From contig DATGPV010000032.1 in NCBI GenBank assembly GCA_035304545.1, positions 10,589 to 74,588 of the forward strand: a stretch of 64,000 nucleotides of DNA. The letters run 5' to 3'. Made by a program: the position numbers and the translations under genes. Positions 36,858 through 39,800 of this stretch are shown one piece after another (the stretch's first letter is position 1; each line of letters starts with the position of its first letter). Source of the DNA: Limnochordales bacterium (GTDB lineage Bacteria > Bacillota > Limnochordia > Limnochordales > ZCTH02-B6). A model generated the notes under the pieces. The model was not told where the DNA came from, did not search any database, and saw only the letters and a list, made by a program, of their open reading frames with translations.

Positions 36858-39800
36858 TTGGAGAAGGAGCAGCGCTACCAGGCCTACGAAGCTGAACAGA
36901 TCCAGGTGCTCGAAGGCCTGGAAGCCGTGCGGCGGCGGCCGGGGATGTACATCGGCAGCACCGACGCGCGCGGGCTGCACCACCTGTTCGTCGAGGTGGT
37001 GGACAACAGCATCGACGAGGCCATGGCCGGTTTCTGCGACCGCGTGGATGTGACCATCCACTCGGACGGCTCCCTGACGGTCATCGACAACGGCCGCGGC
37101 ATCCCGGTGAGCATCCACCCCAAGACGGGCCGGCCCGCGGTGGAGACGGTGTTGACCACCCTGCACGCCGGCGGCAAGTTCGGCGACGAGGGCGGGTACA
37201 AAGTGGCCGGCGGGCTACACGGCGTGGGCGTGTCGGTGGTCAACGCCTTGTCCGAGTGGCTGGAGGTGGAGGTGCGGCGGGGCGGCCACGTGTACCGGCA
37301 GCGGTTCTCCCGGGGCCAGCCCGTCACTGACCTGGAGGTCGTGGGGGAGACGGACACCACGGGCACCCGGGTCACCTTCAAGCCCGATCCGCAAATCTTT
37401 GAAACGGTGGATTTCGACGCGGACGTGCTGACCCACCGCCTGCGGGAGCTGGCCTTCCTCAACAAGGGCGTGCGGCTGACCCTCCACGACGAGCGGGACG
37501 GCCGCCGGGAAGAGTTCCAGTACGACGGCGGCATCATGTCCTTTGTCCAGCACCTCAACCGCAACAAGGAACCGCTGCACCCCGACGTCATCTACGTGGA
37601 CAAGACGGTCGGGGACAACCGGGTGGAGGTGGCCCTGCAGTACAACACCGGCTACAGCGAGCAGGTGCTCACCTTCGCCAACAACATCAATACTCAAGAG
37701 GGCGGCACGCACCTGAGCGGTTTCCGGGCTGCGCTGACCCGTACCCTCAACGACTACGCCCGCAAGCTGAACCTGCTCAAGGAGAGCGAGGAGAACCTGA
37801 CCGGCGAGGACGTGCGGGAAGGCCTGACCGCGGTCATCAGCGTCAAGGTGCGGGAGCCCCAGTTTGAAGGCCAGACCAAGACCAAGCTGGGCAACAGCGA
37901 AGTGCGGGGCCAAGTAGAGTCGGTGGTGGGCGAGGGGCTGGCCGTCTACCTCGAAGAGCACCCCCGGGAAGCCCGCCGCATTGTGGAAAAGGCTATCCAG
38001 GCAGCCCGGGCCCGGGAAGCGGCCCGCAAGGCCCGGGAGCTGACCCGCCGCAAAAACGCGCTGGAGGACACGTCGCTTCCCGGCAAGCTGGCCGACTGCA
38101 CGTTGACGGACCCCGAGGTGTGCGAGCTGTTCCTCGTGGAGGGCGACTCCGCGGGCGGCACCGCCAAGCAGGGCCGGGACCGGCGTTTCCAGGCCATCAT
38201 GCCCCTGCGGGGCAAGATCCTCAACGTGGAGAAGGCCCGCCTGGACAAGATCTTGGCCAACAACGAAATCAGGGCCATGATCAGCGCCCTGGGCACGGGC
38301 ATCGGCGAAGATTTCGACCTGTCCAAGGCCCGCTACGGGAAAGTCATCATCATGTCCGTGGACGGCGACGAGCTGGCCTTCGTCCGGGACGAGCGGGGCG
38401 TGGTCCGCAGCGTCAAGGTGGGCGACTTTATCGACGCGTGCCTGGACGGGCAGCTGGATTACCGGCGCTTTGAAGTGCTCTGCTTTGGGCTGGACGATCA
38501 CTCGTGCCGTTTCCGGCCCATCCAGCGGGTGATCCGGCACCCCCTGTCGGAAACCTTGTACGAAATCACTACCGAGTGCGGCCGTTCGGTGCGGGTCACC
38601 TCCTCCCACAGCGTCTTTGTGTGGGAAGGCGGCCGCCGGCGGCTGAAGCGGGGCGACGAGATCAAACCCGGCGACTACGTGTTGGCGCCGGCCCGCCTCA
38701 CCTTTGGCCCCGGCGAGAGGGCGGTGGTCCAGGTGGCCGCCGCGGGCGGGGTACGCGGCGCGTCGCCGGCGGGCGACGGGCCGCTGGCCATCCGCTTTAC
38801 CCGCGCGCCGGTGGGCCGGGCGGCCATGGCGCGCCTGCGCCGACCCGCGGAAATCGCGGTGGCGGGCGGGCTGCGGGGCGCGGCCCGCGGGCGGGGGGCG
38901 TCGGACGGGCCAGGCCAGGCCCCTTCCAGCGGTGGACTGCAGGAGGAGGCGGGACCCTTCTGGCCGGCCCGGGGCGGGATCCCGGACCGCATCTTCAACC
39001 TGCCCCCCGCGGTGCAGCGGGCCTACCTGGAGCGCTTTCGGCCCCGGAGGCGCCGGCAGCGGGGCCAGCGGCTCATCCTGCGGACGGACTCCCGGGACGT
39101 CGCGGGCCAGCTGGCGTACTTGGTGCTGGCCCAGGGGATGGCGGTGGAAATCCGGCGAGGATCCAGCCAGCCCAGCGGCCGGGAGCTGTACTGGGTCATC
39201 GGCAAGCCCCGGCGGCCCCAAGGGTCCGCGGGCGGAAACCAGACCGGACCCGGCGGCGACTTGGAGGCGCTGCGGGTGGCTAGGGTGGAGCCGGTGGATC
39301 CGACCCGCGGGCAAGTGTACGACTTCTCCGTGGCCGGCGATGAAAACTTCATCGCCGGCATGGGGGGCATCTGCTGCCACAACACCGACGCCGACGTGGA
39401 CGGCGCGCATATCCGCACGCTGCTCTTGACCTTCTTTTACCGGTTCATGCGGCCGCTGGTGGAGGCGGGCCGGGTGTACATCGCCATGCCGCCCCTCTAT
39501 GGCGTCCGCAAGGGCAAGGAGATGCATTACGCTTACAGCGACCAGGAGCTGGACGAACTCCTGGAGCGCATCGGCCGCCAAGGCGTCACCATCCAGCGGT
39601 ACAAGGGCCTGGGCGAGATGGACGCGGAGCAGCTGTGGGAGACGACCATGAACCCCGAAACCCGCACCATCCGCCAGCTCACTCTGGAGGACGCGGAGAT
39701 GGCCGACGAGATCTTCAGCATTCTCATGGGCGAGCAGGTGGAGCCGCGGCGGGAATTCATCCAGGCCCACGCCCGGGAAGTGCAGAACCTGGACGTGTGA
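36858..39800 (+). CDS. gyrB: DNA gyrase subunit B, intein-containing precursor (980 aa; 637 aa after removal of the insert)
   Basis: TTG at 36858 follows GGAGGT. The track ORF start at 36276 overlaps recF and is spurious. Motifs: [61 protein letters not shown], then YGKVIIM // 343-aa insert // [20 protein letters not shown], and QRYKGLGEM. Confidence 0.95.
38355..39383 (+). mobile_element. Intein (Hint domain, Ser1 ... His-Asn / Thr+1) inside the gyrB Toprim motif, with degenerate homing-endonuclease remnant
   Basis: Block [28 protein letters not shown]; block [15 protein letters not shown] (TxxH); blocks [25 protein letters not shown], followed by T. 1029 nt, in frame. The flanks join to give the canonical IIMTDADVDG. 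Confidence 0.85.

Follow-up and report, generated by a model that had tools for sequence, protein, structure and literature searches.

The textbook intein of subunit B of the DNA gyrase (GyrB) is the classical Ssp-type allele, which is found in Synechocystis PCC 6803, other cyanobacteria, haloarchaea and other archaea. It is the single gyrB allele listed by Soucy et al. 2014 (PMC4071816), and 33 bacterial GyrB inteins were counted by Novikova et al. (PMC4760082), the available part of whose text does not give their sites. The element described here lies in the gyrB gene of a Limnochordales bacterium (Bacillota), on a stretch of 64,000 nucleotides that is called the window below (GenBank assembly GCA_035304545.1, contig DATGPV010000032.1, positions 10,589 to 74,588 of the forward strand). 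It is very probably an intein of class 1 within the GyrB Toprim domain, a splicing-competent descendant of a mobile intein in which the endonuclease is dead. The classical allele is likewise of class 1 and lies in the GyrB Toprim domain, but it carries Cys1 and Ser+1 where the window intein carries Ser1 and Thr+1, and it belongs to a different sequence family.

The closest solved relatives of the window intein, by sequence (E 1e-19 to 1e-15) as well as by fold, are the archaeal TFIIB mini-inteins (5o9i, 5o9j) and PI-PkoII (2cw7). They have the blocks RVTxSHSVF and ENFxxGxGGxxxHN in common with it, although they sit in other host proteins and in another domain of life. They also differ in the middle region, since the TFIIB inteins are without any endonuclease remnant and PI-PkoII contains a complete endonuclease, whereas the window intein retains half of one as a remnant.

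Fold and splicing residues of the insert

Translation of the insert gave exactly 343 residues, ending in GMGGICCHN and in frame between KVIIM and TDADVDG. The codons read across the junctions were ATC ATC ATG|TCC GTG GAC on the 5' side and TGC TGC CAC AAC|ACC GAC GCC GAC on the 3' side. The whole 980-residue precursor scored 1003.7 against the NCBIfam gyrB model TIGR01059 (cut-off 882.4). The insert itself scored above the cut-offs of Pfam Intein_splicing (PF14890; 60.9 bits, cut-off 35.8) and of the NCBIfam models intein_Nterm (27.9 versus 24.5) and intein_Cterm (21.6 versus 15.6), the last of which matched protein residues 820-843. In a phmmer search of the PDB sequences, TFIIB mini-inteins of Methanocaldococcus (E 9e-20 and 1e-18) were recovered, as was PI-PkoII (E 1e-15). 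Block B of the window intein, RVTSSHSVF, was aligned to RVTRSHSVF of the TFIIB intein, and the C-terminal Hint lobe was aligned to the ends of both the TFIIB inteins and PI-PkoII, with its terminal block placed on YDLTVPNAENFVAGFGGFVLHN of these solved relatives.

The AlphaFold model of the intein, built from an alignment of 26 sequences, had a mean predicted local distance difference test (pLDDT) score of 79. The score was 91-98 over residues 1-115 and 301-343, the means of ten-residue blocks over residues 201-290 were 69-96, and residues 131-194 were below 50. The top matches of this model in a Foldseek search of the PDB were inteins only, namely PI-PkoII (E 1.6e-13), the Tli and Pho VMA inteins and PI-PfuI, and the TFIIB mini-intein (5o9i) gave a target template modelling score (TM-score) of 0.83.

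The insert has every catalytic residue of a class 1 intein, namely Ser1, Thr82-x-x-His85, Asp323, His342-Asn343 and Thr+1, with the Asp of VYDFSV taken as position 4 of block F. Thr+1, encoded by ACC, is the native Thr of TDADVDG, as it is in all loci examined. Class 3 inteins have no nucleophile at position 1 and carry a Trp-Cys-Thr triad, and bacterial intein-like (BIL) domains do not require a +1 nucleophile and occur in variable, non-essential proteins. The insert is of neither kind, as Ser1 is present, block F has Asp and not Cys, Thr+1 is conserved and the host enzyme is both conserved and essential.

The position of the insert points in the same direction. It parts the strand ending in ...VIIM from the metal-binding DxDxD of the Toprim domain, and the precursor accordingly gave two Toprim fragments, the first of which, in the N-extein, covered profile positions 1-67 and followed matches to HATPase_c and DNA_gyraseB. 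After splicing in silico, the protein of 637 residues gave a single Toprim match (profile positions 1-95 of 96, 74.3 bits) and aligned to S. aureus GyrB without a gap across the splice junction. Intein-free relatives read KVIIMTDADVDG at the insertion site. An earlier note on this DNA, made from the sequence alone, had described a 980-residue GyrB with a 343-codon in-frame insert that splits IIM|TDADVDG directly ahead of the DxDxD acidic cluster. It had assigned the insert to class 1 on Ser1, a block B of the form TxxH, blocks F and G ending in His-Asn, and Thr+1, and had predicted an excision product of 637 residues. Its coordinates and lengths proved exact, and the class, the residues, the site and the product were all borne out by the analyses above.

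The insertion site differs from that of the classical GyrB intein

The site IIM|TDADVDG lies about 70 residues downstream of the classical GyrB intein site. For the classical allele, the search was made with an Ssp GyrB mini-intein, and this query was validated by hits that were named DNA gyrase subunit B and ended in GVFVHN, a C-terminus that agrees with the one given for the Ssp GyrB intein in PMC2794532. These relatives read ...LVEGDSAGG|CFSGDT... and ...GVFVHN|SAKQGRDR..., and their downstream IIMTDADVDG is uninterrupted. The region of the classical site in the window GyrB is itself uninterrupted. An alternative placement of the classical site at EGD|SAGG, inferred from the SAG C-extein (PMC2794532), was ruled out by sequences showing SAGG|SAKQGR. 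The question left open by the earlier note, whether the insertion point is that of a known GyrB allele, is thus answered for the Ssp-type allele, from which it is distinct. Only general mentions of GyrB inteins, and no catalogue name of the InBase type for the IIM|TDADVDG site, were met with in the available parts of four papers (PMC4760082, PMC4071816, PMC6390638, PMC9348778).

Members of the IIM|TDADVDG allele

A scan of one genome per species of the Genome Taxonomy Database (GTDB), with the conserved N-lobe block as query, showed a relative of the window intein in 290 species genomes, and the N-lobes of the GTDB loci were 61-87% identical to that of the window intein. Site, chemistry and size were recorded for the best 80 of the relatives from these 290 species. 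Both junctions were spanned in 69 of these loci, and in all 69 the insertion reads I[IV]M|SVD...[HKC]N|TDADVDG, with Ser1 and Thr+1. When the intein served as query in a protein search, the junctions IIM|SVDG... and ...HN|TDADVDG also appeared in fragments of GyrB from Rubrivivax, Binataceae, Thermovirgaceae and other groups, and Pfam LAGLIDADG_3 and the helix-turn-helix (HTH) families HTH_31/HTH_3 are present in many of these fragments. Matches to 732 clusters at E<=1e-3, to 199 at 1e-10 and to 18 at 1e-30 were obtained in a library of 1.84 billion representative proteins. The allele is therefore, by its presence in public genomes, common and already sequenced, and the window copy is a further member of it.

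Ser1, Cys43, Thr82 and His85 were invariant in the inteins of the allele (71/71), and a Cys-Cys pair preceded the His-Asn in 63 of the 71. The earlier note had also flagged the pairing of Ser1 with Thr+1 as a less common combination. The pairing is indeed present, but as 71/71 inteins show it, it characterises the allele as a whole and is not peculiar to the window copy. An intein of this type has no Cys at either junction, although Cys340-Cys341 stands beside the His-Asn, and could be of modest interest as a tool; the relatives of the window intein occur in metagenome-assembled genomes (MAGs) from thermophilic compost.

The members of the allele fell into groups by size. The majority of the loci had inteins of 568-582 residues, and nearly all of these combined an HTH signature with the two LAGLIDADG motifs (such as LLGFYLAEG and FLRGYLLGDG). 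The inteins of 461-554 residues were without the HTH except for L025 (554 residues), and most of them had both motifs, while three or four had lost one or both. The inteins of 327-343 residues, comprising loci L003-L008 from Bacillota/Limnochordales MAGs and the window copy, had neither HTH nor motifs. Full-size members were found in Macromonas bipunctata DSM 12705 (L022, 576 residues) and in MAGs of Rubrivivax, Steroidobacteraceae, Gemmatimonadota and Acidobacteriota. They resemble the window intein in the insertion point, Ser1, the VTSSH of block B, the CCHN end and Thr+1, and their N-lobes are 63-73% identical to its N-lobe. They differ from it in about 230 additional residues, which contain the HTH (HTH_31/HTH_3) and the two LAGLIDADG motifs, acidic residues included, and judging from these motifs they are presumably still mobile. 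In the full-size loci (L010-L082, for example L022) the HTH, with the signature QPVTFYAWE, follows the Hint N-lobe and precedes the LAGLIDADG domain, and a subset of the copies of 461-544 residues had lost the HTH domain only.

Proteins starting with M-SVDG or ending inside the endonuclease were considered as products of naturally split gyrB genes and were rejected as assembly errors, since they came from long-read contigs in which the neighbouring genes were frameshifted too. At locus L002 and in the assemblies encoding proteins P0001, P0014, P0020 and P0024, which are close and distant relatives, gyrB, dnaN, recF and gyrA were broken by frameshifts, and in such assemblies gene callers take the Met that immediately precedes the intein as the start of a fragment, so that a split gene is mimicked. 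A related intein of 29% identity was also seen in an unrelated host protein, P0030 (578 residues, from a low-GC metagenome); it has KVTGDHSVFVW and ends in ...CCHN|T.

Loss of the endonuclease

Homology of the window intein to the full-size relatives was confined to residues 1-115 and 209-343, as shown by alignment and by tblastn, and the HTH domain and the first endonuclease half were absent from both analyses. In their place, which in the ancestral form holds about 280 residues (HTH and first LAGLIDADG half), stands a spacer of about 93 residues in which Ala, Gly, Arg and Pro abound. The GC content of the spacer was 0.77-0.83 (0.83 over residues 118-205), with 0.86 and 0.73 at codon positions 1 and 2, and the spacer was predicted to be disordered by the low pLDDT of residues 131-194. 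No similarity of the spacer to full-size inteins was found in any frame by tblastn or BLASTP. Compensated frameshifts within the spacer were considered and rejected, as full-size inteins searched against the six frames by tblastn matched only the two in-frame blocks. A conserved island, IRFTxAPxGRAAxxR, stands out in the clade alignments of the spacer and is probably what is left of the first HTH helix or of the start of the HTH region.

The second half of the LAGLIDADG domain is left as a remnant of residues 209-283. In 63 of the 65 larger relatives, the second half of the endonuclease was matched in BLASTP by this segment alone (best E 7e-8), and it was predicted to fold as helix-strand-helix-strand-strand with block-mean pLDDT of 69-96. 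Neither LAGLIDADG motif was found in the window intein by a motif check, whereas most full-size relatives have both. Where AFLRGYFRGDGT of the relatives was aligned to the degenerate motif of the remnant, GDG had become RRR and the catalytic Asp was gone, and the remnant reached only 12.9 bits against Pfam LAGLIDADG_3 (PF14528), below the cut-off of 22.5. With the catalytic Asp lost, the first half and the HTH absent and the Pfam score below cut-off, the endonuclease appears from its sequence to be dead and the element unable to home. The arginine run was considered as a conserved functional motif and rejected, as RPRRRRQRG occurs only in the closest subclade and the wider clade has RPRKYTNSH, RPRKIEPTG and the like at this place.

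Mini-inteins are typically of about 130-200 residues and contain no endonuclease-derived domain. The window intein, with 343 residues, a folded remnant of about 75 residues and a spacer of about 90, is not of this type. Of all the loci examined, it shows the most reduced form.

Proposed splicing pathway

Sequence comparison shows the intein to be derived from a mobile intein of 570-580 residues that contained an HTH and a two-motif LAGLIDADG endonuclease. As proposed here, gyrB would be translated as a precursor of about 108 kDa, which would be inactive because its Toprim domain is disrupted. Once the Hint domain has folded, an N-O acyl shift at Ser1, aided by Thr82 and His85, would be followed by trans-esterification, in which the acyl group is passed onto the hydroxyl of Thr+1. 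Cyclisation of Asn343, aided by His342 and Asp323, would then release the intein, and an O-N shift would form the Met-Thr peptide bond. The predicted products are the 637-residue GyrB (about 71 kDa) and a free intein without homing activity. Inheritance of the element is vertical, and it persists since nothing but a precise deletion would be viable. The gyrB gene of 980 codons is a normal essential gene and not a fusion or an error, and for phylogenies and gyrB-based typing its product is best treated as a GyrB of 637 residues.

Selection on the intein and alternative readings

Nei-Gojobori counts on five sequences (the window, L003, L004, L006 and L007; synonymous distance dS near 0.5-1.2) gave ratios of non-synonymous to synonymous distance (dN/dS) that are to be read as contrasts between regions. 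The ratio was 0.08-0.18 in the Hint N-lobe, 0.01-0.16 in the Hint C-lobe, 0.03-0.39 (typically about 0.15) in the endonuclease remnant and 0.39-0.99, with indels, in the spacer, and the medians for the flanking extein codons were 0.05 and 0.125. The Hint lobes are constrained as much as gyrase itself, which is what obligatory splicing predicts, and the evolution of the spacer is close to neutral. The GC content at third codon positions (GC3) of the intein, 0.87-0.95, matched that of the host, 0.92, which argues for long residence.

Some points weigh against the reading of the insert as a splicing-competent intein with a decayed endonuclease. The splicing and its chemistry are deduced from the conserved residues, the fold and the selection. 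The sequence is from a metagenomic assembly, for which expression of gyrB and its presence as a single copy are presumed. The dN/dS values hold as contrasts and not as absolute values, and the remnant is under purifying selection at a dN/dS of about 0.15, which simple decay does not predict. This constraint implies some retained role, structural or otherwise, and the simplest reading is that the remnant serves as a scaffold for Hint folding. We think it improbable that the dead-endonuclease remnant, with its half-LAGLIDADG domain, arginine-rich loop and relic HTH helix conserved in the clade, has been kept for a newly acquired role. If it has, that role could be a binding of DNA or gyrase that makes splicing conditional, perhaps together with a redox switch of Cys43 and Cys340-Cys341, or it could be one that the intein performs once splicing has set it free.

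A regulation of gyrase maturation by conditional splicing, through redox chemistry at Cys43 and Cys340-Cys341 or through the endonuclease remnant, overlaps with the reading preferred here and is in itself unlikely. Documented cases of conditional splicing exist among other inteins that reside in replication proteins (see the reviews PMC10663303 and PMC11409957). The invariance of Cys43 and the frequent Cys-Cys ahead of the His-Asn would fit a switch of this kind, yet 8 of the 71 inteins lack one or both of the C-terminal cysteines and still keep Cys43, which counts against an obligatory disulfide. Conservation of the remnant and the relic helix without a catalytic role speaks for such regulation, but scaffolding of Hint folding would equally give purifying selection on the remnant.

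It is very unlikely that the intein is still mobile, with its middle region acting as a working endonuclease that cuts intein-less gyrB alleles (with the site AAAGTCATCATCATG|ACCGACGCCGAC) and thereby spreads the intein. The middle region is derived from a LAGLIDADG domain, part of it folds confidently and is under purifying selection, and single-motif LAGLIDADG enzymes can work as homodimers. Against this, neither motif is detectable, the first half-domain and the HTH are gone, an arginine run stands where the catalytic Asp of the second motif would be, the LAGLIDADG_3 score is below cut-off, and the distribution of the intein in the clade tracks the host tree. That the insert does not splice at all, being a permanently retained domain or part of a gyrB pseudogene or an assembly artefact, is scarcely credible, for although splicing is a prediction and the sequence comes from a metagenome, the insert separates the ...VIIM strand from the Toprim DxDxD, the splicing residues are invariant across 71 inteins, strong purifying selection acts on both exteins and on the Hint lobes, more than 12 independent assemblies show this architecture, and a protein with one residue different has been deposited from another MAG.

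Evolutionary history

An intein that splices and no longer homes is also in keeping with the distribution of the allele among the relatives of the host. The best-scoring relatives of the spliced GyrB were intein-bearing proteins of 964-987 residues. All 11 retrieved GyrB relatives that grouped with the window protein in a neighbour-joining tree (76-99% extein identity) contained the reduced intein; one of the intein-bearing proteins, P0032, from an NCBI Limnochordales MAG and named DNA gyrase subunit B, was the one that differed from the window protein in a single residue. Intein-free relatives with lower scores, at 70-80% identity, included those of Geochorda subterranea and Limnochordaceae. 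The intein-bearing sequences formed one clade in the extein tree, and the intein-free P0040 and P0045 were nested in it beside the intein-bearing P0043, both groupings being recovered in 200/200 neighbour-joining bootstraps. No chimera pattern was found in P0040 or P0045. P0041 was also considered as an intein-free close relative and was rejected, since it is on an apparently chimeric NCBI MAG contig of 2.2 kb; it is identical to the window GyrB over the first 98 residues and to P0055 over the last 563.

The intein copies of the clade shared their deletions. These shared deletions, together with the absence of homing, make a single acquisition followed by decay, vertical descent and one precise loss the parsimonious history. 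The intein is fixed in a Limnochordales clade and, it appears, was precisely lost in one sublineage. More distantly, the gyrB of a Limnochordia MAG (P0151, 957 residues) contained at the same site an independently degenerated intein of 319 residues, in which both LAGLIDADG helices are kept and their acids are substituted (ILGCVAARG and FLNGWRAAAGG).

The homing-cycle model of Gogarten and Hilario reportedly runs from invasion through fixation and endonuclease decay to precise loss. Its stages can be seen within this one allele, as full-size inteins, copies without HTH (461-544 residues), the dead-endonuclease clade (327-350 residues) and the nested intein-free genes. The window clade differs from the model in that a half-domain remnant persists under purifying selection, and decay has stalled before the minimal mini-intein. 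The allele thus gives a natural series at one site. Mobile forms with HTH stand at its beginning, partly reduced forms come next, and a fixed copy whose endonuclease is dead and what appears to be a precise loss stand at its end; the series is useful for studies of the homing cycle. The site distinct from that of the textbook GyrB intein and the clear decay series make the window intein mildly noteworthy, and current understanding is unchanged by it.

The gyrB locus and its surroundings

The features of the locus are collected in Table 1. The sequence GGAGG at 36844-36848 lies nine bases before the TTG at 36858, which is likely the start of gyrB, within a forward-strand reading frame of 36276-39800 that encloses the gene. 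A gyrB product of 980 residues was also called on the source contig (ENA ERZ27256727, k141_6285409).

Table 1. Features of the interrupted gyrB gene, in positions of the window
Feature	Position	Strand	Remarks
gyrB coding sequence, 980-aa precursor	36858..39800	+	TTG start, stop 39798-39800; open reading frame and ribosome-binding site
N-extein, GyrB residues 1-499	36858..38354	+	ATPase domain, transducer domain, first part of Toprim; ends ...RYGKVIIM
Intein, 343 aa	38355..39383	+	Translation, Pfam/NCBIfam, phmmer, AlphaFold, Foldseek
Hint N-terminal lobe, intein residues 1-115	38355..38699	+	pLDDT 93-98; dN/dS about 0.1 within the clade
Ser1 (TCC)	38355-38357	+	Block A nucleophile
Cys43 (in VLCFG)	38481-38483	+	Invariant in the allele
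Block B, Thr82-Ser-Ser-His85	38598-38609	+	Aligns to TFIIB intein block B
Spacer, residues 116-208	38700..38978	+	GC-rich, low-complexity; stands in for HTH and first LAGLIDADG half
Conserved island in spacer	38790-38849	+	IRFTxAPxGRAAxxR in clade alignments
LAGLIDADG second-half remnant, residues 209-283	38979..39203	+	BLASTP, fold, dN/dS
Degenerate second motif	39021-39068	+	At the position of AFLRGYxxGDGT in relatives
Hint C-terminal lobe, residues 301-343, blocks F and G	39255..39383	+	pLDDT 91-96; dN/dS about 0.1
Asp323 (block F, VYDFSV)	39321-39323	+	
Cys340-Cys341	39372-39377	+	
His342	39378-39380	+	
Asn343	39381-39383	+	
C-extein from Thr+1 (39384-39386)	39384..39800	+	Remainder of Toprim and GyrB C-terminal domain; Pfam DNA_gyraseB_C

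The gene order around gyrB is dnaA-dnaN-recF-gyrB-gyrA. An antisense open reading frame of 1730 codons (37215-42407, minus strand) spans gyrB and gyrA and looks like an artefact of high GC content and not like a gene. Adjacent genes for tRNA-Ile(GAT) and tRNA-Ala(TGC) follow directly after gyrA at 42421-42582 on the plus strand; no part of the window was found to contain rRNA, though such a pair usually lies within the 16S-23S spacer. DnaA-box matches numbered 10 in the window against 2.8 expected. Upstream of dnaA, at 32239-32501, there are two perfect copies of TTATCCACA and two with one mismatch, and one further box lies at 34364-34372 in the dnaA-dnaN spacer. The cluster upstream of dnaA is probably the replication origin.

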